A DNA stretch of 60,400 nucleotides, the filler included, from Hausera hauseri (Eukaryota), in NCBI GenBank assembly GCA_046269625.1. It is 11 parts of 11 records of this genome, joined end to end, with 100 filler letters (N's around TTAATTAATTAA, not from the genome) between each part and the next. Parts side by side here need not be neighbours in the genome. Positions count along the whole stretch, not along the records: positions 1 to 8,431 come from JBJURY010645441.1; 10 more parts are not named here. The stretch is one strand, 5' to 3'. Shown here in pieces: positions 1-59,954 of the stretch. The translations under genes and the position numbers were made by a program. The first letter of the stretch is position 1. Each line of letters opens with the position of its first letter. The notes under the pieces are model-generated. The model saw only the letters and a list, made by a program, of their open reading frames with translations, was not told the DNA's origin and searched no databases.

Positions 1-301
1 CGGTGTCGGTTAGCGGCCTATCTGGTTAGTGAAAGTTGTGGTAGGTTCCCCTCTTTTTGTTGAGGCAATTCGAAATAATTCTGCTCAATTGGTTTAACTT
101 CTTTGCGTTGCACTTGCTTATTAAGGTTTATTTTCCTTAACTTAGTATCATTATGTGTTAACGATTTTTGGCTCTCTTCCGGTTGATATTTTTTAATTTC
201 GTCTCTCAATCGTTTAATATTTTCTTTTGCTTCTTCCAACATCTTACTTAAAACAGTATAGCTTACAGGTGGTTGCACCTCGCTCGCAGTTTGAATTTCA
301 A

Positions 302-694
302 TTAGGTCAGGATATATTGAGGTTGTTGATATAGGTTTGATAAGTCTTGAAACGAATTTCGTGGTGGTTTTTGTGGAATGCTTGCTATACTACTTATCGA
401 ACAAGTATCCATGTCGGTTATCGAGGGTAAGGGTACTTGTTTTCTTGCTTGATCATTCAAGGAGGGATTATCTGTTTCCTCATCATCAACTATTATACGG
501 CTATTAAACATATAATATGCCGATATCAGCAATAACATGACCGTACTGCTCCACGCATTTGTAGCAGTAATCGCGTGCGTTGGTTGGGCGTCCGCACATC
601 TAAATATTATAAGCAATATTAACGTCAACATAGTTATTGTAGACAACTTAAAGGGATTTCCGAAAATTGTGGGTGGAGTATTAATTGTAGGCAT
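302..694 (-). CDS. Element-associated ORF with two hydrophobic segments and an acidic/low-complexity tail
   Basis: ITMLTLILLIIFRCADA and WSSTVMLLLISAYYMF. Same strand, directly after the third protease-like region. Confidence 0.4.
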   Translation of the reverse strand: MPTINTPPTIFGNPFKLSTITMLTLILLIIFRCADAQPTHAITATNAWSSTVMLLLISAYYMFNSRIIVDDEETDNPSLNDQARKQVPLPSITDMDTCSISSIASIPQKPPRNSFQDLSNLYQQPQYILT

Positions 695-899
695 TTCTAT
701 TATCCGTGTTGGCGTTATTTTTCGTGCTAATGTAGATTCTGTATTCTTTTCACTTATTTGCTTTAATGTAGCATAATTTAATGAGGGTGGAAAAGTCTCT
801 TATCCTGTCACGAACTACCAATGATCATTACATTGAGGCTTTGCATCTTGGTAACCTTCGCAGTTGAATACTATTGATCTCCCCATAACTTTGAGTTAT

Positions 900-1145
900 G
901 CTCCCGTCAGTTTGTATAATACATCGAAACCAATAATAAAATCAGAATACGACTTTTGTGGGTTGGCATAACAGGTAACATCAATATACCCTATAGTCAG
1001 ATCTAATTTTCCGCATGCTTCGGGTATATAATGTGTAATTCGTTTATATAATCGCAAATTTATACGGGTCAGTGGAGTGGTGCTATCAAGTTCCGCATTA
1101 ACGTACTTACCTTACACCTTAACCAATATTGGTATCAGTAAGGGA
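900..1145 (-). pseudogene. Third, more degenerate retropepsin-like domain
   Basis: Manual translation: IPILVKV*GKYVNAELDSTTPLTRIN (DST at 1079-1087), frameshift, ACGKLDLTIG..DFIIGFDVLYKL (IIGFD at 923-937). Not in the ORF track. Confidence 0.55.
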
Positions 1146-1259
1146 TAATCGTTATAATCCTGACGATAATGCATATTATATAACAACTCCAACCTTTTTA
1201 TTTCTTCCTCCAGTTCGTTGACATTTTTTCGATACTTCTCCAGGTCTTTCGTTTTCTCC

Positions 1260-1590
1260 AGCGAAATCGTAGCTACGTCTATTACTATATCGTAATCTAT
1301 TAACGTATCTCTACCTAAAATGCAAGGAATGGTGGAATTTTCTAGTATGTGGTATAAAATCTTTGATCGTTTATTTTTTAATTTAGTCAAGGCTGTAACT
1401 ACGCCTATTACTTTAACTGATTACCATTTATTAGTTTTTGGTTTATCTCACTACTTTCATTCAATTTTAGTTTTAAAATTTCCATTGTAGTTTTACTTAA
1501 GTAATTTTTGGCTGCTCCTTTATCTATTATTGCTTCAATTTTAACTTTATTTATAGTTATAGTTGTAGTTACCATATTATTTGATCCGTG
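1260..1590 (-). pseudogene. Second retropepsin-like domain, downstream of integrase
   Basis: TITINKVKIEAIIDKGAAKNYLS (D-K-G at 1516-1524; AAA is one substitution from Thr ACA), then PCILGRDTL at about 1300-1327. Confidence 0.75.
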
Positions 1591-1749
1591 TTCTATGAAT
1601 GCTATCGTTGTATTTTTATCCACCGATTGCGTTCTGTTCCTCAATGGATACCTACAAGGTGGTATTTGTTCCGTATTCTCGTCTTCCAACTGCATTCTAT
1701 TCCTTAATGGGTACTTGCAAGGTGATGTTTGCTCCAGTTTGCGTTCTTT

Positions 1750-3003
1750 AGCTACTGGTCTACATCGTTGCACACTCATCCAAGAGGTTTTACTCGGGTT
1801 AGAGAGATTTTTTAATTCCACGCTCGATTCAGTTATTTTTAGTATTTTATATGGTCCTTTGTATGGTAACTTCAATTTTGGGCTTTCGCCTGGTTTACAG
1901 GTCTCATTTAATATTAACCAAGTTTCCGATTCGATACACGTGGGGTTTTGTTTTTTTGTCGTACTGATCTTTGTAGATTTCTTGGTGATATTTAATTTTC
2001 AATCCTGCTCTGATCCACGCTTCTTGTAACTTTCCTGAAGAATTGTTGCATAATCCAGTTCCTCCATCAGTTGTGATTGTGGCGATCTATATTCGAGGTA
2101 AATTGGCATAATATCTCGTCTACCATACAACAAAAAGAAGGATAATTCTCAAGTTGTCGTATGAGGACTTTGTCGGTAAGCATATACACAAGGTTTTATA
2201 TATAGATCCCAATCAGCTGGGTGATCATATGCGTAACTAAATATCATAACTGAAAATTGTTTATTAAAAGCTTTTACCGCGCCGTTGGCTTGTGGGTAAT
2301 AAGGCGATGTAAATTTATGATTAACTCCTAGTATTGCCAATAATTTTTCCATAAGTTCGCTACAAAAATTACTTCCTCTATCATATATCATTGTCATTGG
2401 TACTCCATATTCGAATATTACGTCGTCGACCAACCTTCTGGACATAACATCCGTGGTTTGGTTCATCATTGGCATCGCTATTGGAAATTTTGAGTAGTAG
2501 TCAATAGCTGTAAGTACACATGTATTTCCTCTAGCGGTAGTTGATAATGGTCCAATTACATCAACGCCTATACAAATAAACGGTGATGCTAAATCTGGTA
2601 CTGGTTTTAATGGTGTTTTTCTTGCTTGAAAATTTCCTCTTCTTTTTGAACAGACTTGGCAGTTTGTGCACCAATCTTTTACATCATCTGCTATCTTCGG
2701 CCAGTCATATTTTTGCTTAAGTCTACTTAGTGTAGCTTTATAACCTCGATGTCCTCCTAATTGTCCGTCATGGTAGTGCATTAAAAGTTTTGCTCGCATA
2801 TGTTTCGGTACAACCATAAGTAAATCTTCGCTATCCTGGTAGTAGATATTTCCCCTTTCCATGTTATATTTATTTTTGCTCCCTTCTTTGTTTAATCTAT
2901 TACGGATTTTACGAATTTCGTCATCCTTCGCCCGTTCTTTAGCTATAGCTTCGTGTGTGATTGGTATAGATAAAAATGTGCATTTGGTCATTAACGTTTG
3001 CAT
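1750..3003 (-). pseudogene. pol: Integrase (HHCC, DDE core, GPY/F)
   Basis: HDGQLGGH..CQVC, GVDVIGP, YDRGSNF, YYPQANG, and C-terminal PYKGPYKI at about 1845-1870. Confidence 0.93.
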
Positions 3004-3844
3004 TATACACTTCGTCTATCATGATCTGAATTAAATCAATCATTTTATAGTACTCATACAAAATATCCTCTACTAATGGATCTTTATAACCGCTTTGTCT
3101 TATATTTTGTTGATTATCCTTATTAAGTGTTTGAATAATCATACTTATAAGTTGGTTTGTATCTTTGGTGCGCTTCTTTTGTGTTGCTTTGGGTATACTT
3201 GGATGAACTTTTTGTGAATAATATTCTTTCAGATCCTGCATGTCATCATAATCAAAATTTGGATGACCATTATAATCTCGATCGATATCACTTTCTTGCA
3301 ATCTTGACAGGAAATCTGTTTTAGCATTTGCTTTTCCTTTACGATATTTTATTGAAATTTCTAGATCCTGAATTTCTGCAGCCCATTTCATTAATTTTCT
3401 ACTAGTATCCCGTTGTTTCATTAACCACTGCAAAGGTTTTTGATCCGTATATAATATTATTTCTCGTCCGGTAATATAATACCTAAAGTCTCGTAAAGCA
3501 TATGCTATAGCGTAACATTCTCTTTCAATTGTTGACCATCTAGTTTGCGATTCACTTAATGTTTTACTGAGACATGCTATTATTCCTTCGCGTGGTCTGT
3601 CAGGAACTGATTGTCCTAGGACTGCTCCTATCGCATAACCACTGGCATCGGTCATAATTATATATGGATAATTAGGATCATGCAACTGTAATATTAGTGG
3701 GGAAGTTAAGACTTGTTTTAAGACTTCAAAAGATCTCTGGTGTGTTTCTTCCCAATTCCATGTCGTTCCTTTTTTGGTTAATTCTACTAGCGGTTTAACT
3801 ATACTTGCAAAATTATATACGAACTTTCTATAGTAATTAGCCAT
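2939..3844 (-). pseudogene. pol: RT thumb/connection and RNase H
   Basis: TDASGYAIGAVL, STIERECYAI, YTDQKPL, YRKGKANAKTDFLSR. Confidence 0.93.
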
Positions 3845-3849
3845 TCCTA

Positions 3850-5016
3850 ATAGTCTTTGCAGTTCTTTAAGGTATTTCGGTGGTTTTAACTTTTTAAGTT
3901 TTCTACATTTCTAGGATCAGGTTGGATACCTTTACTTGACACTATATGTCCGAAGAAGATAACTGTATTCTTAGCAAACTCGCATTTCTTCATTTTAATC
4001 TTTAAATGAGCTTGTTTCAGTCTATCAAATATTTGAGAGAGATGTTTTAAGTGTTTTTCGAAGTTTTCGGAAAATATTATTACGTCGTCTATGTATACCA
4101 TACAGTAAGTTAGTCCTTGTAATACAAAATTCATACATCTTTAAAATGTAGCAGGTGCTCCTGTTAGACCAAAAGGCATAACATTAAATTCCCATAATCC
4201 AGTTCCTGTATAAAAGGCTGTATTTTGCTTATCCTCCTCAGTTACCTCTACTTGCCAAAATCCACATTGCAAGTCTAAAGTGGTGAATATAGTGGCGTTC
4301 CGCAAGGCTGTCAGCATTTCATCTATTTTTGGTAGTGGATAATTGTCTTTCTTTGTGACATTATTTACTGCTCTAAAATCTACACAAAAGCGTTGTGTTC
4401 CATTTTTTTTCTTTACCAGCACTACTGGAGACGTCCATGGTGAGAAACTTGGTCTGATAATACCACGCTCCACCATTTGTGATATTTGTCTGTCACATTC
4501 CTCTTTCTTAACCTCAGCCATTCTATACGGATTTTCTTTAATAGGGTAGATATTCTCTGTAATTATATGGTGCTGAATAACGTTATTTCTGCCAATATCA
4601 TTATCATTCATAGCTATTATATCTCGATTCCTATGAAATAGTTGCAACAATTTCTTCAATTGATATGGGGTTAATTCGCCATCCTTAAATTTAATATTCT
4701 CATCTTCTACAAGAAACGTTGCTGCGCATACCTTGACTTGTTGTAATTGTCCTAAATTGAGATTTTGTCGCAATCTTATTTCCTTCTTATTAATGTTTTC
4801 TATTGGCTGCTCCAAACATTGTACTTCTTTTGGCACAAATAGAGGGTATTGTAAGATCTTATATTTCTCATTGTTATATAAGTTCGGTTCGAACATACAA
4901 GTTTGCTTAAGGTACTGAGATGGTGTCGTTAACATTACCACTATCTGATGTTGCGGTTTGATAATAACATCATAAGTCAAAGGCATGCTAATTTCCTCTA
5001 TTGGCAAATTAGTCAT
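3850..5016 (-). pseudogene. pol: PR-RT linker and reverse transcriptase
   Basis: ORFs 4141..5016 and 3886..4134: PIKENPYR, RFCVDFRAVN, LDLQCGFWQV, MPFGLTGAPATF*, YIDD (4084-4095), FFGHIVS. Confidence 0.95.
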
Positions 5017-5064
5017 TGTCTATTTGAGAGTCTTTGTCGATATATCCATTGAAATTCCTGTTAT

Positions 5065-5370
5065 CTAGGATAATACGTCCATTCCTATTACTAAAGGTAC
5101 TGGCAATATTTTATCATCGACCACAAATAGGGTAATTGTATAGGGATTATAATCAATTCTTATCTGGATATTTATTTTTCCTAAGAATCGCACTTGTGTG
5201 GAATTGGCTGCTTCTATTACTATGTCACTTGGCATAATCGCTCCCTTTTGATTGTCAGTTAAATATGAATGTTGAATCATCGACACTGATGCACCAGTAT
5301 CTAGTAGTGCCATTGAATTCAATCCGTTAAATCGTACTGAAACATAAGGAATATTTCCTGTTGTTAGAGT
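5065..5370 (-). pseudogene. pol: Retropepsin (aspartic protease) domain 1 of pol
   Basis: PYVSVRFNG..ALLDTGASVSMI (DTG at 5293-5301) and C-terminal LVIGMDVL, within ORF 5065..5805. Confidence 0.92.
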
Positions 5371-5759
5371 GGTTTGTGTCATGAAGATGAATTTTGTATT
5401 ATTCCATCTAGCATCCGCAGTATTATACTGTCGTAGTAGGCTCGGTGGGTAAGTAGAAGTCGGTAAGCAAGTATATTCATCTAAATCCCTTGCCATCGGA
5501 AGATCGTGCATAGACGCAACTTTCATTTCTTTGTATTCCGGATATTCTGGATATTCGTCAATAGGTTCGGGCTTATAATATGTTAGTACTTCTGGTTCGG
5601 AATGTTGTCTGGCTTTCTTTCTTAATAATTTATATTTCACCAAATACTCCTCCACTGTTAACTTAATAAAAGCCTGTAACTTTTGTTCTAATTCTGGGGC
5701 TAGACGAAGTTCTTTTCTTAATTTATCAAGTTCCTTCGAGTGCCAGTACATCAGTACTG

Positions 5760-7640
5760 ATTGAGCCATTGAGGGAAACATCCCAACATAATTTTCCAAG
5801 TACAACCGCGTACTTTCTTTATGTTTCTAGCGGCTCCTATTTGTCTTAGGATGACCATTATAGTAGTAATTATAACATAAATACCAAAATCTCCCGATAT
5901 AACTTGGCCAAAGATAAGGAATTTATTCTAAAAGTCGTAAAGGATCTTTTTAGCTCTTTTTTCTAAATGATCGACTGGTAATAACATTCCGTAATTGGGT
6001 ACTCTATCTGGTCCTTTAATGACAGTATATACAAATTCAGTAATAACTTTCTCTCGGATATTCTGGAATAATACTTGCTTTCTTACCGCTTCTAAGTCGT
6101 TTAATGAATAAAGTCCACTGATAGGGAGTTCCCTATTTACTTTAAATTTTATACCTTTATCTAACGGTAATAACACAATCGTCTGAGGAGTGTTCATCGT
6201 AGCTGGTGGACGGGTCTTAGTCCATCTTCCGTCATTAAGTTTAAAAGCTGGATAAAAATCTTTATAACATGGTGCAAAAGTAATTTCAGTAGGTAGTAAC
6301 AATTTCCGTGTAATCGGATCTACATACCCATATTTGTCTATATTTTTATCATTGTATCAAACCATTAGTTAATTCGTGCAGTTTGCTTTTGAGGATGTTA
6401 CTGGTGTTACTTCTATCGGCGGACACCGATATACATGAAGTATTTCTACTTGTACCCTACCAAATGTTCTGGGGCGGTAACCCATAATCAAAGCAATGTA
6501 TTCGGGAAATTGTCTAGCTAATATCAAGTTATGTTGATTCAGTTTTTGAGTAATTTAACAGTCTCTTAATACCATCATATTATATAACTCAACTAAATCC
6601 ATTTTCGCAGTATCATAGATGTAATCTATCTTGTTATTCGTATATAAGTACCACTTTATATCTTCGGTTGGTAACTTTCCGGTATTCACTAGTGTTTCTT
6701 TTGTTACAAACAAGTCTTCATAAGATGTTGAATATACCGAATTTGATCCACAAGTGGATACTGCTCCTTTGCATGTTAACACTATTCCATCTTTATTATT
6801 GGATGACATCAAGACTTTCAGGGAAGGGGTTTGTTTTAGAGTTCGTGGAGTAGGTAGACTTATGTTATGATTGTGTTCTGGTTCTTGGTATTCATCATCA
6901 TAGTACAAGTCGCCTTGTATTTCATACATAGATACTTGTTTCAGGAAAGCTAATGGACATATCATAATCGTCTTTTCTCAAACTACTGTGGATTCTCCTA
7001 GTATACATACTCCATCAGAGTACGTGCAGGATGGTGCAGTCAACATTTTTCCTGTATTCGCATCAAATTTTTACAAATTTTACTTTGTTTTCTTTTAAGG
7101 TAACGGTATAATCTTCTATTTGCACTACAGAGGATTCCTTTTGACCGTTTATCATTATTTTTTCTCCATCACAACCTCCTCCATATCCAGGCCACATTTT
7201 CCCAGCTGTAACTATTCGAGAGTGAACTCGTTTTCCTATACCTGCTTGTATTGGTTGTTTTAGACCTACATGAATTGAATCTATAGCCTTTCTACAATTT
7301 TCAGCAGTTATTGTTACTGGTTTAGCTAATCCTATGGGATAATCACTGAATTCCATGAATTATGACCACAATTTTAAGCGAATATTACTTTATTAACCTG
7401 ACATTCCTTTACTTGCACTTGTTGATAACTAATTCTCTGATACAAATTGTAATTGTAAGGACATTCCTTTCTTACTGATATCGAATTTGCGTTTTGGCAT
7501 TTACCTTTATCCACTAATGATAGTCTGGCTCTTATTTCTGGTCTGGAACAATCATAAGCCTCTAACACTTTCGCAGTTTTTAGAGTGCTTACTGCTATCA
7601 AGTATAATAATAAACGAATAATTTGTACTACCCAATCTGA
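5760..7640 (-). pseudogene. Chuvirus (Jingchuvirales/Monjiviricetes)-like class III fusion glycoprotein, disrupted
   Basis: Manual translation through stops gives, in order: hydrophobic signal-like stretch, AYDCS..LSL..GKC, VKECQV..NCGHNSW, AG..GCDG, C..STSYEDLF, YTNNKIDYI..LYNMMVLRDC, FPEYIA..EILHVYRCPPIEV..NCTN..VDPITR, SGLYSLNDLEAVRKQVLF, and TM block KFLIFGQVISGDFGIYVII. This matches the motif order I recall for chuviral G. Confidence 0.82.
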
Positions 7641-8431
7641 AATATTAGTATTCTTTGGATATATTAATGTAGTGGCATCAAATTTCTTGAGAATTTCATC
7701 CCAATCACCATGTTTCTTTACCCAATCTTTTGTTAACCTATCCATATGATAAGCCAAATCCTTTACTATATGGCGTAACTTAGCGTCAACCTCAGTTTGA
7801 TTTTTAAAACTAACCACTATACATCCCAATGCCATTAGCAGTCTATTTTGATCACAATCCTTTAATAATTGTGTCAATTCTATACTCAATCCACCTTTCA
7901 GTTCCTATTTCCGTAATAGTCTTGTAATCTGCGATGAAAAATTTCTAGTCGTCTCTATTATAGACTGTAATGGAATTGTTGTAATTGTTGGTACCTTCTT
8001 AAGTTTCTTTGGGTTAGCTTTCTTGATTAATTGTTCTGAAAGTTTATAAGTTGTCAATGTTACTTTTGGTATATTTATTTCAGGCTGGGCTGATGTTCCT
8101 GGAATAGGATCTTGTACTTGCTCATCCTATTGTCATTAATAGTGAACCGTTGAAAATTATTATATAAGACGGTTTCTAATGTTTCTCGTTGGTCTCTACG
8201 CTTTCGCGACAAAGGTCTTTTCTTTCATTGTTTTTCTGGTTTTTCTTCTTCCTCGGGATTTTCATTATCATCACTTACTGGGTTAAAATCACATTTTCGT
8301 GGTCTTCCTTCTTTCTTCTTAGTACCAATTTCCATAGTAATCTGATACTCTTTTCCTGTAAGGAGTCCATAATCTACGACATAGTCATTGTCAATGACTG
8401 ATCTACCATAAACATCAGTTTTTGCTATTAT

Positions 8432-8841: not shown

Positions 8842-10905
8842 TCAAACCTCCTCCGATTCGACCTCTAACTCCAACTGACCATGACTCCCCAATAAAGGAA
8901 TCCTCTGACTCAAATAGTATTGTGATCTTGGATCCACTTCTTTGTTCAGAGTAGTTTCAATGAATCTAGTTAATAAGGTCCGTATGCAAGGCACACAGCA
9001 GCATCCACACACTACCAGCAGGGCCAGAGCACAGCATATAGATGTCATAAAGCTAAGCATGACTGCTTTATATTGTCCAAAAATGTTTTCCATCCACATA
9101 CTGAATGGGTTTTCTATGCCACTGTTATCGGCCAATTCATTACTTAATGTTTTCAAACCTTCCAAAGCCTTAGTTATAGTGCCATCTGGAGCAGTATTGT
9201 TGGGAATAAAAGTACAACAATTTTCTCCAAACATTTTACAAACGCCACCTTTTTCTGCTAAAAGAAAATCTAAAGCTATCCTATTTTGCCAGGCCATCAG
9301 GCTGGTTTTGTCTAATTGTTCATGGATTCCTCGCACCGCATCTCTAGTGTGATTGACAAAGCGCTGCTGGTTATAATAGATGTAATTGATCCAATCCACA
9401 TTTTTGTTGACAGTGGACCACCAAAACAATAGGCTCTCGAATCCTGCAGCTACTTGGTCTCGTGCTTTAAACTCGTCCGGGACTCCCCTGGGCACTCCAA
9501 TAGCATCAATGTAGATGTGTGGGTCAAATGAGCCAGATGGGCCTGATACAGCACGACTAACACGGCTGTTGGTGATATGAGTCTCTGTCATTGGAACCCC
9601 CTGGATGGGCAGTACATATAACGTGCCTTTCCATGCCTTTGGAAGTTTGGTCCTCAGGACCTTTGGGGTGCACATCCACCAGATGTCTGCCCTTCCTACA
9701 GTCTGATTGCTAAACCACTCTGGGTCAAATCCATTTGTGCCATCGTCACCTGAGATGATGTCTCCACACCACCCCAGATGACCCACTTCGACTGAGCCAG
9801 AGTTCCTAGCGAAACAGGTGTAGTTACCTTTGTATGGCATGTACGTAGGGGGCACCACCCTGTTTTACTTCAGGGTACAGATAGTGGACCGTGGTACAGT
9901 TCCCATCAGTTGGTGCACCTCTGAACAGAGAGACAGCACATTTCAAGCCATTTTCATCATTGTGTCGATTTAGAGGGAATGGTGTAGTGCCCAGGTGAGG
10001 TCTAGCTGAGGAGCAAGCATAACAATTAGTTTTATTTGCAGCCTTGGCGGTGTACATGATCCAATTCAGCCACTGATTTTCATCTTCAAAACCTGTTTCA
10101 ACTAAATAAGTGTCCTTTAAATTTGTTATATTGACTAATCTAATTAATTCTGGTTGGTCTTTAGTGGCTAGTGGATTTTCAGGAGATGAGGTAATGTTAG
10201 GCTTGTCCGTCTTGGCCGCTACTTTAGATTTTGACACTACCTGTAGTCTAAATACTCCCAGGTTATCATCACCAGATTGATAGGTTCCCAAGATCAAATA
10301 CCTGGTGTCTTGTACTCTAGGGGAAATTAAAGACAGTATCAGAGGGTTACAGGTGCCATCTAGACAGGGATGTTTGACAGTGGCCTTTCGTATGGTCAAA
10401 CGGCATTTTAAATTCACATTTGTGGTAAAGTTATTAGACTGTGCACCCACATCTCCATTGTACCCCCAATCCAATCGTGAGGTGCTAGTGATAACTCCAA
10501 GCCAATGTTGACAAGCGCATTGTCTATTCCACTGTCTCTGCTGGCCTCCATTTAACCATGGAACCCATCGACTGTTCTTTGTACTGTACCATGCTGCCTT
10601 ACACCAAGCTGCAGTGTTGCACACATATTTGTCACTCCAAACCAATTGTGACTGTACCAACCCTGTGCAATCAGAGACTTGACATAGATCAAAACTGGCC
10701 ACACAATCCACAGATTCTGTGCAAACAATGGTAGGTGGTCCAGTTTTGGTCTATTTATTGTGAGGTCAGTCTGATGTTCTTCTTTGGCTAGGAAATGAAT
10801 GATAAACATAACAGCTACTAACATGGATAAAAAACACAGAGTTATTTTTTCAAAGGGCATGGTCGATGAACAGGAGGTCGTACCTTTGGTCGGTTTGAAG
10901 CGCAT
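8842..10905 (-). pseudogene. env: ERV envelope (gamma-type Env of a fish epsilon-like retrovirus), two frameshifts
   Basis: SU CxxC (CYAC), RVSR cleavage-like site, immunosuppressive domain WQNRIALDFLLAEKGGVC, CX6CC (CKMFGENCC), TM followed by CGCCCVPC. Spread over ORFs 10552..10905, 9824..10711 and 8842..9858. Confidence 0.95.
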
Positions 10906-10990
10906 GTATTGGTAGGAATTTTGCTTCTACCCTCTAAAAGACAATGGGGCTGGCTTCAAAACAGAGTTTTAGGAATAATTATTATTATTA

Positions 10991-13850
10991 TTATTTTTCC
11001 CCAATGTCAGCCAAATTGTTCCTAACTTCCTGCAATGAGCGGGAAGGTGCTGGAGTGGGTATACAATGTGTAAGGTGGTACCAAACTGCCCCTTTTTTGC
11101 CTTTTAATTTAACGGTGTGGGTGGTCACCTCACTGACCTCCCACGGACCAGACCACCTGGGCTCTGTCCACTTTCTTTTGTGGACTTTCACCCTTACCCA
11201 GTCTCCAGGCTTCACAGTCTTCAGCTGTGCTTCATCATCACCATCATCATCAAGAGGGGGCTCACTCCTCTGCACCTGTGTGGACAAAACTCGAGTAAGA
11301 TTAGTTAGGGTCCTCATATATTCATCCTCCTCAATTTGCCACAATTCCAATGCTGGTCCGGTAACACACTCCCTGGGAGGGCTAGGCATTTTTCTCCCAG
11401 GTAACAGCTCATGTGGGGACAAATGTGTCTTGTCCCTTTCTTCTGACCTCATTGCCATGAGGGCAAGTGGTAGGGCATCGACCCAGGTAAGCTTGCTCTT
11501 ATGGCAAATCTTAGCAATTTTTCTTTTTATTGTCTGATTGGCCCTTTCGACCAGTCCTTGGGAGGATGGGTGATAGACTGCTCCGAATTTGTGTGTTATT
11601 CCCAAATGTGTTTCTACTTCTCTTAGATGTTTGCTAATAAAATGTGTGCCATTGTCGGCTTTTTGTGCTATGAATTCACAATCGTGTGGTTCTAGATCAT
11701 TATGTGGCAGGTTTTTAGCCATGTTGACAGTCTCCTTGTGGGAGTAGGTGATGTGTGGCTGTGTTAGTGTGTCGCTGATCCTCATTTTTCTGGTAGGAGA
11801 GAGCGTAAATGCCATAGATGTGAGAAAGGCTACTACACCATGGTTTGTATTATTGGTTAGAGGGTGACACATCACTAGGTGAGCTGTTTTGTCTACTGCT
11901 TTTGCTAGAGCTGCTATATGTCTAGTGCAGTGGGTCTGGCCCTGTTCCATGATGTCTAATTTTGAACTGTGATACATTAAGACATTTCTATAACCTTCCC
12001 TCCCCCCTTTCTGAAAAAGGATGGCATTGACAATTCCATTCTTTTCAGAAACATCCAGGAAAAAAGGTATGTTGTAGTCTGGTGCCTGCAGGTGCGCTGC
12101 CTGGGCAAGTGCCTGTTTTAGTTCAATAAATGACCTTTCCGCACCCTCTGTCCACATTATTTTAGCACCCAGGTTCCTATGTCCCACCGTAGCTAGGCAA
12201 TTTCTTAAAGGTTGAGTGAGACCCACGTAGTCAAAAATGAAATGTCTACTATATCCTGTAAGTCCTAAAAAGGCTAGCAAGTCCTTGACTGTGTTTGGCC
12301 TACCATGGTGTAAAATAGACTGTCTTTGTGTGTCAGTTAGAGTATGTCCTGTGCCAGAAATTTGTCTGCCTAAAAAAGTGACTACAGGTCTGCATACTTG
12401 TAGTTTGTCCTTTTTTACCTTGTAGCCTAAATCAGACAAGTGATTTAACAGGGTTAGGGTAGTGGTTAAACAACTGTCACTGTCTGTTGAAGCTATTAGT
12501 AGGTCATCAACATACTGGATTAGGACAGTACCATCAGGTAAAGTAAGATTTGATAGGTCAGAGTTCAAGGCAGCATTGAAAAAACCAGGGCTATCCTTGT
12601 AACCTTGTGGAAGTCGATTATACGTATATTTCTGTCTATTGTACGTGAATGAGAAAATATCTTGACAGTCTGGTTGTAAAGGTAGGCAAAAGAAGGCATT
12701 GGCTAGGTCGATTACAGTGAAACAACAATGTTCTGGTGATAGATTTTGTAAGGCCAGATAGGGATCAGGGACCGGGATGTTTTCAGTGATGGTGGCATTG
12801 TTAATTTCTCTAAGGTCATGAGCCATTCTCCAACCTTTTCCCTCTCCCATTGGAACTGGCAGGATTGGAGTATTCCAATTTGAGGTGGAATGTCTAAGGA
12901 CACCAGCTCTCAATAGACCAGTTATGGTCTGATCGATGCCTGTGATCTGTTCAGGTTTTAAGGGATATTGCGGGCGCCAGACAGGTGCGACATCAGGTTT
13001 TAATCGCACCTTAACTGAATGATTCATTACAAAACCAACATCAAAAGGGTCAACTGTCCAGATTTTTTTTTTTTCAGGGACCTTGGCCAGGTAAGAATTA
13101 GCTAGTTCATGATCACTATGTTCGCGGCCATGGTGCCTGCTCAACTGTTGTTCCTCTAAGATTGCTGTGTCATTACATGTGTGTGAGATTTTCCAAAACA
13201 AGTCATCTGTAGACCTATGTAAATTTGTGATTTTGGTTGGCACATAGACACAGGCAATGGCTTGCTTTACCATGGGACCCAGGGAACGAGCTTCGAAACC
13301 ATGACCTATTGCTAATGTGACATGAGGATGTGTGGGGTGGCCAAGGCATTCTACAAACCACTGTAGCTGGTCATCAGTAAGGCTAACACTGGCAGCTACT
13401 CCAGCCTGGCTGACGTAAATGTCTGTGATATTTAAAGATTCCAACTGTCCCTCCTTCTCATCTTCCCAGGCCTGTTGATACTGTTCATCTGGGACACGTA
13501 GATAGTTGTATGTGCAATGTAAGGGATCAATGAATGGGCAGTGTGCACCAATGGAAAAAATCCAAGGCTTCCAGGACAGATATGATTTCAAAATTTTGGG
13601 GCTATCCTGGCCCGCAGACATCAGTCTGGACCAGAATATACTAGTGTTTTGACTACATAAAGCAATGTCAGGTGTATGTGACATAAACAGAATTCGTGCA
13701 TGATCTGGGATAGGGTGTGGTTGTAATGTCAATCTTAAGCCTTCCTTGGTGCAGTAGATAGTAGCCCCCAGTTTAGTTAATAAATCTCTCCCTAGTAAAT
13801 TGATTGGGCAATTAGGGGCAAATAGAAAAGAGTTGGTGATGGTTTGTTGT
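10991..13850 (-). pseudogene. pol: ERV pol: protease C-terminus, 2H phosphoesterase-like insert, RT, tether, truncated integrase
   Basis: [11 protein letters not shown] at about 13780-13810; [18 protein letters not shown]; [25 protein letters not shown]. Confidence 0.95.
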
Positions 13851-13859
13851 ATTCGTCAG

Positions 13860-22513: not shown

Positions 22514-22799
22514 GTTAGTAGGTCGAGTCTCTACCACCCCAACCTCAGCGTCACTTGAAGATTGTAAAATAGAATTATCCATAAGAGATTTATCATAAAA
22601 GTTTTATATAGCATCTATCCCCTTCACTCATTAAATGAGTCTTATTTTCCTCCTTTTCTGAATTTCCTGACTTTCTATTGGCTATTTATTGAATTAACTT
22701 TTAATTGAATTTAAACATTACTATCCGTTTAAATTTCTCCTCACACTCTTGTCTTCCAATGTTTTATTGTCACAAATCGCGCGAATACACTGAAAAAGT

Positions 22800-25277
22800 C
22801 AAAAACCTTTAAGCCTTCATCTTCAACATTTCACAATATTCTCACGAGGTCAAGCGCTGCATTTGCACAACGCCGTCGTGACCTCCAAGCAGAACGCCAA
22901 AACATGGTTCAAGCTGAAATTTTGTAATTTGAACGTTGGATTTAATTTTGCAGCAATCCGACGGTCTACTTCTCACTGGGCTTCACCATTTTACATAGTA
23001 CTAAGAAAGATGGCACGCTTCTGCCTTGTGGAAATTATCGTCCTTATTAACCCCTTAACTATACCAGAAAGTTACCCTCTCCTTATGATCTCTGACATTT
23101 TCCGCAGATTAAATGGTAGCAACATATTTTCCACCGTGGACTTTCACAAATGTTATCATCAGATTCCAGTCTCTCCGGAAGATATTCAGAAGTCTGCTAT
23201 GACAACACCATTTGGTTTTTTCGAATACTCTACATGCCGGATGGACTTCGCAACGCTGCCCAAACATTCCAGCAACATACAGACTCTGTGCAGATTTGCA
23301 TTTTGCATCCCCATATAACGACGACACCTTATAGCCTCCGGATACAAAGAACAATACATGGAACACATGGGCACTCTTCTTAAACGCCTTCACGATCATA
23401 ATTTCCAAGTGAATAGGAGTGCATCTCATTTCTCGGCCCAGTCTGTCAGATTCTTGGGCCATGTCATTTCGGCGCAAGGGAACGCACCATTGCCTGAGCG
23501 ATTTATTCCATTCGGAATATTGCTTGTCCATCGACCGTGACAGAACTGCGTAGCTTTCTAGGAATGGTTAACCTGTGCCACAAGTATATTCATAACTGTT
23601 CACATTTCTCTGTGAATCTCTCTGACCTAGATTCTGGTCCAAACGACGTAAAATTCAGTGAACGGATTAAACTAAAATCACAGCTATAGGATCACAGGAT
23701 CGCAGGGTCACAGCTCATCCAAAAAAGGACGCACCATTGTATATGTTCACTGACGCATCTAAAATAGTTGCAGGCGCAGTTCTACATCAACTGAACAACA
23801 AAACTCACGGGCCATTAGAATTCTTGAGCTATAAGTTCTCTAAAACCGAAACGCGTTAGTCGACTTTTGGTAGAGAGCTGCTTTCAATTTTTCTAGCCAT
23901 AAAACATTTTCAACACATGCTGACTGGGCGTTTTTCACAATCCAAGCCGACCATAAGCCGTTAATAAAAATGCTGCAAATGCGCAACCCTTCTCCACGCT
24001 AAGAAAGGCAAATTTCGTTTATCTCTGAATTTAATTTTAATATTCTATATATACCAGGCGAGAAAAAGGTTGTGGGTGATTTTATATTATGGTCTGTGCC
24101 GTCGATCTATTTTCTTCCGGTATTCTCTCAAGAAACACTTCGGCAAAATCCACCGCCACCATCCAACATCTCACAATTTAAGAATACCGAAACCATAGAA
24201 GGTGTCATCTTTTATATCTCACTGTCGGGAACTTTTGGACTATATTTTCAGAGGCTTTACGCAAACAAGCCTTTGATCACATCTATAATCTTCACCATTC
24301 CGGTATTTCAAACACTTATCGTCTTCTTTATACCAAAGTAATTTGGCCAGCCATGCGTCGAAACGTAAAACACAGGGTTTCTCATTGCATTCCATTCTAA
24401 AAATTCAAAACTTCGCGGCACATTAAACCACCGTTATATCATTTACCGACGACGTCACGTTTTGACACTGTCTATACTGCCCTCTCTCACCTATCCGAGG
24501 GTTCGCTTACTTGCTGACCATGCCTGATAGATCAACAAGATGGCCAGATATCATACCACTTCTTAATATCAAAGCTGATATCATTCTCAAATGGGTCAAC
24601 TGCTTCGGAACACCAAAACATCTCATCCCCAATCAAATATGCCAATTTAAATCCTCACTCTTTAAAGCGCTAGTCGCTCGTTTGAGAATCGAGCATATTC
24701 ACACTTCCCATACCATCTTCAAGCCAACGGAGTTTTGGAACGATTTTACCACACCTTTAAAGCTTCGTTAAATATTCTCGCAGACAATAACGATCAGTGG
24801 CTAGACATCATTCCGTACGTTTTACTTGGTTTGAGAAATACGCCAAGTTCATCGACTAATCACATTCCAGCTCAAACATTATTCAGTACATCACTCCGCC
24901 TGCTTTAAGACCTAGTTGAAAAGACAACTGACACAACGGAGCGTGACATAGAGGCAGCTAGAAAACATTCTGAATCATTGGACGATGATAAATTTTGCCG
25001 TACAACAAACAATTATAAAGAGTTTGTACCAGAAAATATGTTTACAGCGAAATTTGTTATTCTAAAAATTCAAACAAAGGCGGGTTTACAGTCAACTTAC
25101 ACCGTGCCATATAGAGTTTTAGAATGGCACTCACATACCATCAAAATACTGAAAAATAATAAAATAACTTCGGCTCATTTAACTAATATAAAACCAGCAT
25201 TCATAATGCATGACGAACTTGAAACTATAGAACAGCCGATCAATGATTCCTCGTTCCGCAAACGTTTATTAAACTAA
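22800..25277 (+). mobile_element. pol: Decayed Ty3/Gypsy pol (CsRn1-like): RT-RNase H-IN
   Basis: SHWASP, YHQIPV, TTPFG, FLGHVIS, FTDAS, TFGRELL, ADHKP, DRSTRWPD, HLQANGVLERF across many frameshifts. Confidence 0.88.
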
Positions 25278-32009: not shown

Positions 32010-33157
32010 GTGTTTATTTTACCCACCAATGTCCGTACGCCCAACTTTTATTTCACCCCACCCACTTACGCTTATCATCATTACATGATAAAGCGACTTT
32101 TGTATTCGTTACCGTATACAGCTGGTGCTCAATTGATGGTGCCTTTAATTGCCATTCTCCTCTGCCTTCATAGACACGGCTATAAACACCGTGGTTTATT
32201 TCCTTCTGTGCCAGCTGAACTTCTTTTATGCGCATTTTCAGTCCACAGTCCGTTAAAAGGCTATAGCATTTTGGCAGTAGAAATATCCATCCCCGATACT
32301 GAACCCGACTTTCGCTTTCATCCTTGAAGCAGCCGATTTTGTTTGTGATGGCGTTGCTGTTCAATGGATGATTCTGTGGGTAATTGGACGTGTCCAGTAA
32401 TCCGTCTGCAGTCATTTACCGCAATAGCTGTTCGTGATCGACGTTTTTCAGTTTAAAGAAAAAAACTGTCTGTGTCACCGGCAATTATATTAATGTTGCA
32501 GCCGTCAAACCTTTGCCGGTATCGTGCCGTTTCAAGATACTGCAGCTAATACATCCAGAACTTGCTCAGATCTATACCACTTGTCCTATATAACTGGGCC
32601 GGTCCAGTACGACTTCTTTCCTGTTTAAAAGTACGTCAACCAATCCATCGGCAATGTGCACTGATCGCCTGAACTGCGCCTTGCTGGTGTACGTGACCAA
32701 CTGCGTTTCACTGTTGCATAGGCGCACGTTGAGCCGCTTTTTCAGATTCTATACTGTTTTTCCGTATAGAGAATTGTTTTTTAGCTTGTAATAGTACTTT
32801 CCAAACTTACTACAAGCTACAGCTCGTTTCTCCGAATTCCGATCAATGTACGCCTTGAATATCGGAGCCTGTGCGAATCGCATTACGCGATCTAATCATG
32901 TGACGCGTACACCCAGCTGCATGTAAAATTGCAACAGACGCCAATGAATAATGTAATTTGATTTGGGTTTATGCGTCATAAGCAGCTTCTTTAACTTTGA
33001 GCCAGGCGGACACTGACTAATTGGTGCGACTGGTAATTCATGCCGAAAGACATGCAGCTCACCTGGTACCACGAGAACGACTTCCATCAGGTATCCGATT
33101 GAGCTGTTTTCTGCCGTGTCTGCTGTCGGCAGATTTTCCATTATGTCGTCCAGATCT
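32010..33157 (-). pseudogene. Protein-primed DNA polymerase B, C-terminal half
   Basis: GYLMEV, YYKLKNNSLYGKT, GDTDS, LDTSNYPQNHP, IGCFKDE, DDKRKW..AYGHW. Confidence 0.9.
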
Positions 33158-33159
33158 TG

Positions 33160-33450
33160 TCTGTCGAGCGTGACCTACGACAAACTGGTAGTTGCGGTGG
33201 TTTTGTTGTCAATACACAAACGCCGTCGTTACCGGGCGAACATTGGATTGCTCTGTACGTATATCTTACCGTCGTCAGAGTATTCAACCCGCTCGAATTT
33301 TATTATCTCTCATCGTTAGTTTCTCAAATTGAAAGATAATCACGTCATCATCGTGTTGAATATAATGGACTTTATTATCAACATCCATTGACCGTATCAT
33401 GTGGACATTACTGTTTATAGTGGCTTATGTTACAAACACTTGTATGAATT
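33160..33450 (+). pseudogene. Adenain-type cysteine protease, 5'-truncated
   Basis: GFVVNT..PGEHWIALYV..VFNPL, then YQHP..SCGHYC. Confidence 0.85.
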
Positions 33451-35130: not shown

Positions 35131-37149
35131 CTAAAATTGTTGAATCTTATTATCAATAATCTGTTTTTGAGTAAACGTCTTAACACTAGAAATCTGTGCC
35201 GATCGAAAATTTCCAATTTGCGTTGTTAATGTCGTATCACCTTTCAAAATGTTGACGAGCATACTTTTCATGCTAACAATTCGACCAGCGTCAATCGTTT
35301 CATTAGCGAATTCAAACATGGGAAATCGAGTTATGGTATAAGACACATCTTCAGGCTGAAGGAAATAGTTGACATAGTTGAGATAATCCGTAGTCAGTGG
35401 TACATATTGACTATCTTCGGATAAAGTAAACATTGCATCCGGATTTTGTTTGGAAAATAGAAACTTTTTGGTATATATATTAATGTTCAATACAATATTT
35501 ATAATTCGATTCGTCAGACTACCGATTTGCTTCAATTTAAGTTGATCCGGATAAACATCATATCTGTTACCAGTTTCATAATAAATCAGATCATCGATAA
35601 AATCTTGAAGTGACAGATTTTCCCGTTGAATGGCATCGTTTGTGTTGTTTTGTCCGAGGAAGAGCTTGAGTATCAAACCATAACTCGGCGGTTTAGCTAT
35701 TTTAAAGAGTATATCAACTCGATCTCGACTGACAATGTCATATATTTGACTTCGTATAATTTTCTTTAAGTTCAAATTAGTAACTCCATCTTTCGCTGCT
35801 GAAAATTCACTATAATCCTGTAACAATAAAACATTACTAAGACTATATACACGAACAATAAAAATTGGCAGTTCAATAATAAGAAACCGGAACTTATCCA
35901 AAGAAACCTCAATTTTTACTATATCAGTATTATCCAGTAGGCCACGATTTTTATAAAGAATCTTGCTTGCTTCGATATCCGCCAAAGTAAAATATTTCTT
36001 CTTTCCACTACCTGACAATATTTTCATCGGTTCCCGATAAAATGAACCAATAGTATTTGTGATGTTAATAAATTGAAGCTTCAACATTTTTTCGTCAACC
36101 TTACCAACAACCTGAATGTTGTACTTATGCAGAGGACTATTCTGAGACGTATAAACATAGAATGGTGTTACAAAAACCTGAAAGGGAATCGTCTTTGTTT
36201 CAAGCACATTGATCAGCTTTAAAATTATCCTTTCACTTCGTACGAAATATGTATCGAATATTTCTAAATCGACCAGGAAACTATGTTCAACGGATTGCGT
36301 ATATTGATGGAGTTTAAAAGCCACTAATCCGTGAGTTAAATCGGAAAATGTAAAACTCCAAATTATTTTAGACGGATCTCGGAGGTTGGAGAATTTTGCA
36401 ATATTGTTGGGTTTCAAGTTACGAATGTTGACAATCAGCGGTCCTCTTTCTTTGTCTCGTGTACTGATTTCCAAACAGTCCCGAGGAAGAACGGAGAAGG
36501 TTCCACCGTAGTTCTTCAGCTGTATTGTGCGGAAGGCTTTTACAACTGGTGGCAATGGAAGAGGAAAGGTGCCATCTGATGAAGGAACAGTATTGATATA
36601 AATGGGTATTTGGAGATATGTGACATCCAGTAACCTCGTAGTTTTAATATTGTATATCTCAATTGTCACAGGCAGGAAATCGACAGGCGGGCTATTTGAT
36701 TTGCGGTGCATAAAACGATATCCCATTAACAATGCTTGTTGACATTCAGTGTTAAATGTCGGCACTTTTGTTTTGTTAAACGTAATCAGTACTCCGGTAC
36801 TTGGCCAAAACCGACTAACCATCCATGGTTCCGGATCTGAATTTTTCTCCACAACATTCACATGCCGCATTCGACAGAATTCGGTTGTTGGGTCGTATTT
36901 TATAGTTAAAATATTTGAACTCAACGCTTGGGATAAACCTTTCCAACTCTTTACATGTAAATATGATTTCAAGACAACTCGACTTTGCGTTTTTGGTGGC
37001 ACAATATTAAAAATAATTGACGCTTTTTTCACCGAAGAATGATGACGTCGAAATAGATAGATACTGAAATGTACGACATCGGATAATTGCAACGGTGAAC
37101 CTTCGTGTTGGTATTTAACCGAATATTTCGGGAAGGAGCACGGAAATTT
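35131..37149 (-). CDS. FREM1/FRAS1-related extracellular matrix protein, one large exon (CSPG-like repeats)
   Basis: Splice acceptor TTTTATTACAG at about 37150, then KFPCSF..VKYQHEGSP. Repeats SFTFSDL..G.VAF, FTLADI..ILY, PPSYG, FTQKQI. More than 650 open codons. Confidence 0.65.
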   Translation of the reverse strand, partial: KFPCSFPKYSVKYQHEGSPLQLSDVVHFSIYLFRRHHSSVKKASIIFNIVPPKTQSRVVLKSYLHVKSWKGLSQALSSNILTIKYDPTTEFCRMRHVNVVEKNSDPEPWMVSRFWPSTGVLITFNKTKVPTFNTECQQALLMGYRFMHRKSNSPPVDFLPVTIEIYNIKTTRLLDVTYLQIPIYINTVPSSDGTFPLPLPPVVKAFRTIQLKNYGGTFSVLPRDCLEISTRDKERGPLIVNIRNLKPNNIAKFSNLRDPSKIIWSFTFSDLTHGLVAFKLHQYTQSVEHSFLVDLEIFDTYFVRSERIILKLINVLETKTIPFQVFVTPFYVYTSQNSPLHKYNIQVVGKVDEKMLKLQFINITNTIGSFYREPMKILSGSGKKKYFTLADIEASKILYKNRGLLDNTDIVKIEVSLDKFRFLIIELPIFIVRVYSLSNVLLLQDYSEFSAAKDGVTNLNLKKIIRSQIYDIVSRDRVDILFKIAKPPSYGLILKLFLGQNNTNDAIQRENLSLQDFIDDLIYYETGNRYDVYPDQLKLKQIGSLTNRIINIVLNINIYTKKFLFSKQNPDAMFTLSEDSQYVPLTTDYLNYVNYFLQPEDVSYTITRFPMFEFANETIDAGRIVSMKSMLVNILKGDTTLTTQIGNFRSAQISSVKTFTQKQIIDNKIQQF

Positions 37150-37417
37150 CTGTAATAAAAACCATTTTTAAATTTTTTTCAAAAATTAATTTATTTTTCA
37201 CGTGAAATACTCCTAATATTTTAATTATACTGACAGGAATTAATAAATGTTTTATCTATGTATTCATACAATTCTGAATTGTGGTGACCAACTTACAACC
37301 GAGACATTATTCACATACATAGGTAATGTCATCTAGATTACGTATCTAAGTGTAGAGTATGAAAATCTGAAGGATGTAGCAACAATGAAAATTTCACTGA
37401 TTCAGTATTTCAAAGTA

Positions 37418-41671: not shown

Positions 41672-42594
41672 ACCTTTAAAACATTTTATCGGAGTATATT
41701 CATGGTGGTATTGATTGTGAGTTTGAGAAACAAGAAGAACTTATGTTCGACTCGGAAACAGGTGAAGAAGAAATTTTTTATTTCCAGCAATTTTTTATTT
41801 GAAATTATGTCAAAATGTTACAAAAACGGGTACGAAGATATCAACAGATCCAGATTATGAAAAAGAACTAAAGTGTTCCTATGCTTTTGTATCTGGTCAA
41901 TACACGGAAAACAGATCCAAGTAAGTAAGTAAAAGTGTGCTTTCTTCCTCACTTATCAAAACAGGTTTTAACCACATTTCCCCATGTATCTCGCTATAAC
42001 GATCATTTTCGGTAAAATTTTGGTCAGACCCTCCCTGGCCGAAAAGGAGGTCGATCAATGGACTTTGGACCGAGTCAAATCGGTAGACTGTGACGAGACG
42101 AGCAAAAGTTTATAGCGATGAGAAGCTCGGAAATGTAAGGGTGAGGAGCTAGAGAACAAAAAAGCAAAACAGGAAATACGCTACGGGTTACGCAACACTG
42201 ATTGATGACACTCTAATATGTCGTACAAAGGTGTAATTGATGTAGGCAAATCGAATGGGGGAAATTTCAAACTCAAAAAAATTTCCCCCTGTTCAAATTG
42301 GCCGGTGATGGAAATCGGTTGGGCACGCAGACTGTCATGAATTGAGCATTTCATATTATAGATGCCTCACGATCAGATGATCTTAAGATGGTGAAAAATA
42401 ACGCGAAACGCGTTGTTAAAACTATAATTGAGAAATCTGTCAAATTGTACGAAGTTTTATTCCGCTGTACGTCAACGACAACAGCGAAATCTGAGTCTAA
42501 TAGTAAAGTGGCATTATCAGGAAACCAACATAAGCATGTATAACAAAATTATACATTTCAAATACACAAAGCTGTTGTACAAAAGCAACAGAAA

Positions 42595-42990
42595 GCGTTT
42601 AGCAATTGTTCACAAAAGTGTTTGTAGCATAAGCCACAGTAAGCAATAATGTCCACATAATAGGGTCAATGGATGTTGATAATAAAGTCTGTTATATTAA
42701 ACACGATGATAATTTGATAACTGTCTTTCAATTTTTGAAACTAACGATGAGGGACAGTAAAACCCGAGTGGGTCAAATACTTTGACAACGGTAGGATGTA
42801 CGTACACCGCAGTCCAATGTTCGCCTGGTAACGCTGACGTGTGTATATTGACAATAAAACCACCACCACCTGTTTGTCGTAAGTCACGTGGCACACAATC
42901 CAGTGAAAACACACCACGAAATTTTGCATCCAAGAGCAGTTGTCCGTAGTGACTGAGCTGAGTGGAGCCAAACGTAAAACGCAATTTATG
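42595..42990 (-). pseudogene. Adenain-type maturation protease
   Basis: FRGVFSLD, IVNI..PGEHWTA, VFDPLG, LCGHYC; one in-frame stop. Confidence 0.9.
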
Positions 42991-43049
42991 AATAATAATA
43001 ATAATAAATTACTTCATGTTACTAAGAAAGAAGAGACATCCGTTTTTAT

Positions 43050-59400: not shown

Positions 59401-59954
59401 CATAGACTGCTTCAAGGCTGCAGGTGTCGGTATGAAAGACCGTCCGGACAGGTATATCATATCACTTGACTTTGTTATAATAAAGCCGAAAGTTACAATC
59501 ATTACAATTCTCCAGCCGCTGCCTTTTTCCGTATAGTTTGCGATTTTCTCATGGAGCTTTTCGCAAATATCCTCAACGAAATCTTTGGTATATGGTACAG
59601 ATCGATGTGACAGGTACAATTGCTTCCTGTCACCTTGCACGTTTTCGAATTCTGCAAGTGCATAATACTGCACTTTGCAGTGTTGAAATTTCCGCACTTC
59701 AACTTCCAGTCGGTTTCGCACACTGGAGGGGACATGTCTCAATTGCATTGTTGTTGTCGTTGCCGCTGACACGTCCACCTTCATGTCCATGTACGATCTG
59801 TTTAGATCGTACTTGAAGGCAATGGGTGGTTTCTGCTAGTCCTGTTGCTGCTGCTGCTTTGCGTGCATTCTTCATTGCTTTTATATGCTTGACATATCCT
59901 ACTGGTTGATGTTGTTGTTGTTGTTGAGAGGATGCTTCTTTTTGTTGAGTCCAT
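56480..59954 (-). pseudogene. Maverick/adintovirus protein-primed DNA polymerase B with endonuclease-VII-like insert
   Basis: VVNVQN..CFLYSIL, YADIEA, CYLC..DHDHFTG, KGIFPYD, GIRGG, YIDIDNLYG, GDT, LDMSNYPQNHP, IGCFKDE over about 7 frameshifted ORFs. Confidence 0.93.

Follow-up and report, generated by a model that had tools for sequence, protein, structure and literature searches.

The window analysed here, a 60,400-nucleotide stretch from the assembly of Hausera hauseri (GCA_046269625.1), consists of unrelated contigs joined by N spacers, and its first contig (positions 1-8430, GC 33-37%) is a decayed copy of a Ty3/Gypsy retroelement in which a chuvirus-like fusion glycoprotein (G) precedes pol. 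What is present of the element lies on this contig, and all its features are on the minus strand, in the order ubiquitin-like piece, Bcl-2-like domain, internal signal, class III G, transmembrane (TM) segment, tail, aspartic protease (PR), reverse transcriptase (RT), RNase H (RH), integrase (IN) and protease-like repeats. We consider it probable (roughly 85%) that this is a decayed copy of a high-copy, Burro-like element, that is, a GAG-ENV-POL Ty3/Gypsy element with an envelope (env) protein of the herpesvirus gB/chuvirus type, the active members of which encode one polyprotein. The original prediction assigned the element to positions 4141..7889, which hold its core; the copy continues downstream through RNase H, integrase and additional modules, and upstream to 8431. 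Both contig edges fall within coding sequence, so that neither end of the element is present, and the long terminal repeats (LTRs) and Gag lie outside the contig.

A class III fusion glycoprotein

Together, the minus-strand fragments spanning 7904-5928 specify a single glycoprotein. Of the five fragments, three individually matched the Pfam family PF24664 (Monjiviricetes_fusion), and the single frame 7061-5781, with X at its five stops, matched the same profile with an E-value of 2e-40. The close relative P0001 (here and below, P and L numbers denote related proteins and DNA loci, respectively) covers positions 5-591 of the 653 in this profile (E 1.9e-63), and its ectodomain contains 14 cysteines, preceded by a hydrophobic signal at residue 1337 and followed by a TM segment at 1911-1929 (hydropathy 2.5).

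In the window, the corresponding parts are a putative internal signal sequence (7570..7643), the ectodomain (5931..7569), which is interrupted by frame breaks near 7335 and 7070 and by stops at 7376, 6980, 6557, 6371 and 6359, and the TM anchor (5847..5921), with a stop at 5930 just ahead of it. The signal was placed by the hydropathy peak of P0001, and the relatives share a hydrophobic stretch before the conserved start of G; it is probably cleaved. The predicted layout of a signal-like start, an ectodomain of about 600 amino acids and a TM block was borne out as far as the single glycoprotein and its TM segment are concerned. The signal, by contrast with that prediction, is internal and not a start, because P0001 runs 1,340 residues further upstream of it in one frame, and the ectodomain proper comprises about 540 amino acids, reaching 600 only when signal and TM are counted.

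The fold was examined on P0001 and not on the broken window copy. In an AlphaFold model of its last 936 residues, the blocks of G mostly reached a predicted local distance difference test score (pLDDT) of 85-97, and the first 300 residues were modelled poorly. In Foldseek searches with the G part, the top-ranking viral models were those of chu-like virus glycoproteins (E 7e-41), and the top-ranking solved structures were those of herpesvirus gB (E 1e-14, root-mean-square deviation 12-14 Å). Likewise, a profile built from 100 G sequences (A4) matched herpesvirus gB in all 35 of its PDB matches (best E 5e-4). These predictions place G among the class III fusogens, in the chuvirus/gB type, as originally proposed.

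The glycoprotein and Pol form one polyprotein in relatives

A search with G over 1.84 billion representative sequences yielded 758 matches, the best 150 of which were listed, and 26 of these were chosen by length and score for a domain check. A Pfam protease follows PF24664 in the same chain in 14 of the 26, five of which also contain RT and RNase H; P0155 (4844 aa) and P0159 (3003 aa) likewise join G to PR, RT and RNase H. This makes seven proteins, to which two DNA loci are added, in which G, protease, RT and RNase H occupy a single frame. At the DNA level, L001 contains a single frame of 3426 codons with G, PR, RT, RH and IN, and L003 one of 2693 codons with the same domains plus a Gag knuckle. 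A Gag knuckle or capsid is found ahead of G in P0011, P0017, P0019, P0020, L002 and L003; the sequence of P0001 begins too far downstream to include either.

Two of the matched proteins are of interest in their own right. P0012 is listed in NCBI as a hypothetical protein from a metagenome-assembled genome of the Flavobacteriaceae, but it is a G-PR-RT-RH-IN polyprotein and probably represents mis-binned animal DNA. In P0043, PF24664 is followed directly by RNase H in one chain of 797 amino acids, which could be either another type of G/pol junction or a deletion.

In the window, the predicted cytosolic tail (5346..5846) consists of a conserved amphipathic segment, interrupted by a frame break near 5775, and a variable linker to the protease. 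The tail motif split by this break is in a single frame in P0006, P0008-P0015, P0017, P0019, L001 and L003. The distance from the TM segment to the DTG motif of the protease is about 200 codons in the window and 126-382 codons in the relatives. Beyond the break, no stop interrupts the frame until 5067, past the DTG motif (open reading frame (ORF) 5826-5065). The frameshift near 5775 was correctly identified originally, and so was the open passage from the tail through the DTG motif; G has more breaks than were stated, and the run to RT is not free of stops. Further breaks near 8128, 7335 and 7070 were placed by the colinearity of four pieces with P0001, and stops are found at 5067 and 5022, before RT, and at 4143, within it. 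In all, the path from G to IN carries eight frame breaks and 12 stops. The env-before-pol polyprotein organization that had been proposed is supported: the fusion is broken in the window copy and open in relatives.

One rival explanation holds that a chuvirus-like G gene, an endogenous viral element, lies upstream of an unrelated Gypsy pol by chance or through nested insertion. The resemblance of G to chu-like virus glycoproteins, the loss of frame between G and pol in the window copy, and a tail-to-PR linker without a detectable homologue would all fit such an origin. However, no repeats were found within 1-8430 (nor in L001-L003), the base composition is uniform over all parts of the contig (A 0.35-0.43), and neither a polypurine run nor a compositional step was found between G and PR. 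No convincing LTR, primer-binding site or polypurine tract lies between them either, the three CA..TGG words all falling in coding sequence, so that the boundary by which a nested insertion would be recognized did not appear. G is also closer to the G of retroelements, in which it is fused to Pol (29-32% identity to the nearest intact relatives among the matches listed), than to that of the chu-like virus L004 (23%). Because G, PR, RT and RNase H share one frame in relatives, and the G and RT trees largely agree, nested insertion between G and pol is unlikely. The chance or nested origin as a whole is already largely refuted, and we regard it as extremely improbable.

The trees were built as follows. 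For G, 113 of 148 matched proteins passed a coverage filter, giving a tree of 114 sequences; for a second G tree, 103 passed. In the former, the window copy and P0001 belong to a clade of 19 (support 0.91), in which 13 members have a downstream protease motif, versus one of the 95 other sequences, and that lone protein lacks a Pfam protease. Trees of RT, with the retrovirus-like pol at 8842-13855 of the window as outgroup, and of G for nine relatives share the pairs P0009/P0155, P0159/L001 and L003/P0017. Furthermore, 34,374 contigs of set X1 and 4,351 contigs of set X2 cover 30 of 30 bins of the contig, G included, at high summed depth, and this multi-copy cover of the whole contig speaks against a chance neighbourhood of G and pol. 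Word-index protein searches recovered P0001 as the sole relative, the only other match being an unrelated plant protease. Nothing matched in scans of viral contigs, whether P0001, the RNase H ORF or alignment A2 served as the query, or in a first metagenome scan.

A second alternative concerns the break near 5775, which would be native if the sub-lineage comprising the window copy and P0001 made Pol by recoding at the G tail, through programmed frameshifting or stop readthrough, with G produced in excess. The two sequences are interrupted in the G tail at sites no more than about 10 codons apart, the break of the window copy coincides with a slippery-type heptamer (only 7% of positions are as close to one), and most of the summed depth at 5775 shows no length difference. 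Yet the heptamer is non-canonical, one of the other seven breaks also adjoins such a heptamer, and the downstream structure is not significant (z -1.2, with 21 of 200 shuffles as stable). Moreover, P0001 crosses the break point of the window copy in one frame, and L001 and L003 are open at the junction without having a heptamer there. Other copies differ in length at the breaks of the window copy, at 5775 in 12 contigs of X1 and three of X2. Recoding therefore appears quite improbable to us, and the break near 5775 most likely reflects decay of the window copy.

Pol and the modules downstream of integrase

The protease (5026..5343) has its DTG motif at about 5301 and the stop at 5067, and matched PF13975 (E 7e-6) and PF00077 (E 1e-5). 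The spacer between PR and RT (4700..5020), at the place where Burro has a dUTPase-like domain, had no Pfam match and is homologous to the spacer of P0009 (independent E-value 0.003). RT (3889..4560; PF00078) has a YIDD motif at about 4095 and a stop at 4143. Against the PDB, it matched Ty3 RT best (4ol8/7q5b, E 1e-56), followed by caulimovirus-type (1e-41), foamy virus (1e-20) and HIV (1e-7) enzymes, and it is 57-61% identical to the RTs of the nearest intact relatives. The connection and RNase H domains (3300..3865) matched PF17917 (E 1.7e-32) and PF17919. The integrase (1700..2811) comprises a zinc finger (PF17921, E 1e-19), a core (PF00665, E 1.5e-12) and a C-terminal domain that matches those of relatives; this region contains a stop at 2151 and a frame break near 2030. 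The PR-RT-RH-IN order and the Ty3-type RT assign this pol, at the level of sequence, to Ty3/Gypsy (Metaviridae), in agreement with the original prediction.

Downstream of integrase, an aspartic-protease-like domain with an altered catalytic motif (1290..1563; PF13975, E 0.0015) is broken near 1412, and P0009 and P0155 have DTG domains at the equivalent place. A possible second protease-like remnant (830..1130) was recognized by motif reading and had no Pfam or phmmer match. It is followed by a putative pair of signal-like and TM-like stretches (500..652), the first with a hydropathy of 1.8-1.9 at 652-646 and the second discerned by eye; hydrophobic pairs after integrase are also present in P0009, P0012, P0015 and P0155. 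In P0009 (2486-2740) and P0012 (2257-2560), integrase is followed by a second signal-ectodomain-TM module, which contains a stretch that looks by eye like fibronectin type III and had no Pfam match. Multiple aspartic protease domains per polyprotein were seen in P0155, P0011, P0009 and P0159; P0155 has up to seven Pfam protease stretches, before and after RT-IN, with a C2H2 finger and ankyrin repeats between them.

Domains upstream of the glycoprotein

P0001 (1963 aa) is colinear with the window from 8431 to 5760, with 61-70% identity in four pieces and homology up to the contig edge at 8431. The piece at that edge (8129..8431) probably represents the C-terminal part of a ubiquitin-like domain and an acidic linker, cut by the contig end; it is 61% identical to residues 1070-1170 of P0001 and had no Pfam match. 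Residues 950-1110 of P0001 in turn match P0159 (4.8e-7) and P0011 (4e-4), and weak Pfam ubiquitin matches occur at the equivalent place in L002 (E 0.0047) and P0020 (E 0.031). The region has a pLDDT below 50 in the P0001 model, and the window keeps only the end of the domain.

Between this piece and the signal lies a candidate Bcl-2-like helical domain with a BH2-type motif (7692..7961), which contains one stop (7907) and scores below the Pfam cut-off. A hidden Markov model of this region built from three relatives only gave 19.5 bits with P0001, a score reached by none of 1000 shuffles, and 8.0 bits with the window, reached by two of 1000. With a five-sequence profile (A3), Bcl-2-family chains made up 58 of the 60 PDB rows shown (best E 0.043), and P0007 matched PF00452 directly (E 0.00096). 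There was no Pfam match to the region in either the window or P0001, single-sequence PDB searches returned no Bcl-2, and the best Atlas score was 0.76, for an unnamed feature. A single-sequence model was uninformative (pLDDT 48), and the structure search with it listed only generic helical bundles, with no Bcl-2 among them. A Bcl-2-like domain directly before env, as in Burro/GYPSM1, is thus suggested by weak scores at the right position.

Further upstream, P0001 has a stretch rich in Arg, Asn and Ser and two exonuclease-like segments that, by eye, lack the usual acidic motif. These segments scored 0.88 in Atlas for features of RNase T and the arenavirus NP exonuclease, and showed 33% identity over 85 amino acids (E 7e-4) to the PF00929 domain of an accessory ORF of L001. 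This ORF (L001:10617-12104), located after the polyprotein, combines a motif of the protease type with a DEDDh exonuclease (PF00929, E 1.4e-5) in which, unlike in P0001, the acidic motif is kept. Residues 330-830 of P0001 matched none of the 150-odd proteins compared. An AlkB-like domain at about 585-640 of P0001, a by-eye impression that found no support, was dropped.

Relationship to described elements

The original suggestion of a possibly undescribed lineage is not supported, as the same order, with BCL2 directly before env, has been published for Burro/GYPSM1, and gB-type GAG-ENV-POL elements are on record as well. According to Arkhipova and Yushenova 2019 (PMC6431247), the Burro/GYPSM1 elements of planarians, giant Gypsy elements of over 30 kb with LTRs, encode ubiquitin-like, BCL2, env, PR and RT domains, with env in frame between gag and pol, and an accessory set (BIR, MATH/TRAF, ankyrin, Smc, AIR1) that varies among Burro elements. 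As far as described there, they share with the element studied here the order of ubiquitin-like (here putative) and BCL2-like domains, env with matches to mononegaviral fusion glycoproteins, PR, spacer, RT, RH and IN; the in-frame position of env within a polyprotein of several thousand residues (here, in the relatives); high copy number; and decaying copies with stops and frameshifts. The ankyrin repeats of Burro recur in P0155. Unlike Burro, P0001, which is a partial sequence, has no BIR, MATH, Smc, AIR1 or ankyrin match in Pfam at E-values up to 10, the partial window copy has none either, and P0001 carries instead its pair of degenerate exonuclease-like segments. The Burro account of that paper makes no mention of protease-like or membrane modules after integrase. 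More broadly, no exonuclease-like or post-integrase modules were found described for Burro-type elements in the literature covered, which did not extend to Grohme 2018, its supplement, Repbase entries or figure panels, where they may be described.

A bolder reading is that of a distinct Burro-related lineage with its own host-control set (two catalytically degenerate DEDDh-exonuclease-like domains, ubiquitin-like and Bcl-2-like domains, and, after integrase, repeats resembling proteases as well as a second membrane module) and a recoded link from G to Pol, by analogy with retroviral gag-pol. We deem this unlikely: the accessory domains are leads from one relative, and the recoding part is weakly supported. 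Membership in Burro in the strict sense is likely, the likeness being one of described layout and not of sequence compared with Burro1-4. A flatworm host is likewise probable, judging by the link to P0117 described below and by the low GC content.

Chary and Hayashi (PMC13524379) describe gB-type GAG-ENV-POL elements, which in their account are not monophyletic, from Platyhelminthes, Nematoda and Bryozoa, six of them from S. mediterranea. They define the group by a gB-type env within 2 kb upstream of a Ty3/Gypsy pol; in the window, about 600 nt separate the TM segment from the protease. The flatworm gB-type errantiviruses Smed_errantivirus_1-6 and C1a share the Ty3/Gypsy pol and the gB-type env before it (PMC13524379), and the cysteine layout of their env domains I-II visibly parallels that of P0001. 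By eye, P0117 carries the published env stretch of Smed_errantivirus_1 almost letter for letter; in the second G tree, it shares a 20-member clade (support 0.90) with P0001 and 10 fused proteins. P0117 and P0001 are only about 30% identical in G domain I, and the present element is therefore placed in a family separate from the Smed errantiviruses. In P0117, a domain of the mitochondrial ribosomal protein L47 precedes the N-terminal piece of G, a junction that probably stems from a faulty gene model where an insertion occurred. The main text of PMC13524379 contains none of the terms 'Bcl-2', 'fused', 'frameshift' or 'Burro'.

Nematode endogenous retroviruses (Sacco et al. 2022, pmid 35550022, cited by Chary and Hayashi) are described, as cited, as metaviruses with ENV before POL and a captured RNA-virus glycoprotein. 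They resemble the window element in this order and differ from it in their nematode hosts. The nematode elements reportedly have a single continuous gag-env-pro-pol ORF, and we know of no Bcl-2-like domain in them. Anakin elements of the BEL/Pao group carry a chuviral G (Dezordi 2020, as cited elsewhere) and share with the window element a PF24664-type glycoprotein on an LTR retroelement. Unlike Anakin with its BEL/Pao pol, the window element has a Ty3-type RT, G before PR and no BEL/Pao Pfam families. P0120 has G after a DUF5641 domain, that is, 3' of integrase and not fused ahead of PR. Troyka (PMC12440569) and Cer1 (PMC10309623) were rejected as comparisons, their layouts as described being unrelated.

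Judged by its sequence, the window element is a new, divergent family of a published layout, the GAG-ENV-POL gB-type Ty3/Gypsy elements. It adds a very high-copy family to the small group of retroelements with an envelope inside the Gag-Pol polyprotein and supports a class III, chuvirus-like identity for the env of such elements. It also connects work on the BCL2-env-PR order of Burro (2019) with work on gB-type GAG-ENV-POL errantiviruses (2026); in the texts searched, neither refers to the other.

A possible mechanism

Going by the order of domains in relatives, the polyprotein of active members would consist of Gag, accessory, ubiquitin-like and Bcl-2-like domains, the internal signal, G, TM, tail, PR, RT, RNase H, IN and the extra modules. 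By analogy with viral polyproteins that have internal signals, the signal would thread G into the endoplasmic reticulum, leaving G lumenal, and signal peptidase would free the N-terminal Gag-accessory-Bcl-2 part. The signal may remain as a tail anchor of the Bcl-2-like part, which would probably damp host cell death. The TM segment would halt transfer, such that Pol would be cytosolic and attached to the G tail until cut off by the protease. Because signal-peptidase cleavage would part Gag from Pol, packaging in the form of Gag-Pol would be precluded, and Pol would have to reach the place of budding by way of the G tail or of the co-translated RNA. A tether between Pol and the G tail, the idea originally put forward, is plausible on this model. 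Particles would then enter neighbouring or stem cells through fusion mediated by G.

Alternatively, env may have been retained without infectious particles, G serving in cell-cell fusion or intracellular assembly and the element spreading as an ordinary retrotransposon. This is compatible with the anatomy of the fused polyprotein, the literature covered on such elements yielded no data on particles or infectivity, and copy number is, in the account of Chary and Hayashi (PMC13524379), no direct evidence of current activity. On the other hand, a full-length ectodomain with conserved cysteines has been kept across lineages that share only about 30% identity, and this implies selection on the fusogen. 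We hold spread without infectious particles to be possible, if somewhat unlikely.

Several points weigh against a Burro-like element with an active one-polyprotein form. Processing, budding, fusion and anti-apoptotic activity are all things we infer. No copy of the window family was seen with an open frame from G to PR, and the sequence of P0001, the only close relative, breaks off about 10 residues beyond the junction. A length difference at 5775 is present in only 14% (X1) and 23% (X2) of the summed contig depth. Some nodes are weak, namely the RT pair P0159/L001 (47) and the G node joining the window copy to the main clade (50). The Bcl-2 scores are weak as well, that of the window domain not exceeding the best of 500 shuffles.

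The layout raises the question of how Pol is packaged once signal peptidase splits it from Gag. The broken and incomplete window copy is ill suited to answering it, and S. mediterranea or relatives that are intact would serve better.

Other elements in the window and its relatives

A separate contig carries, at 8842-13855 (minus strand), a retrovirus-like pol (RT, RH and an IN whose C-terminal domain is of the MLV type) together with an env of class I (PF00429 TLV_coat, E 1.4e-10), split by a frame break near 9850; they look like a vertebrate-type endogenous retrovirus and are unrelated to the G element. Other Gypsy-type RT fragments lie on separate contigs at 55485-56012 and 22794-23318 (plus strand). 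A piece of a protein-primed DNA polymerase B (PF03175), with direct and inverted copies of 76-82% identity on other contigs (57676-59835, minus strand; 32165-33165; 42000-44026), probably derives from Polinton-like elements. The piece at 35131-37167 (minus strand) belongs to a single-exon FREM/cadherin-like animal extracellular-matrix gene (PF19309, PF16184). Finally, L004:85-10775 is a chu-like negative-strand virus genome with the order G, middle ORF, L (PF24664, PF00946, PF14318, PF14314).

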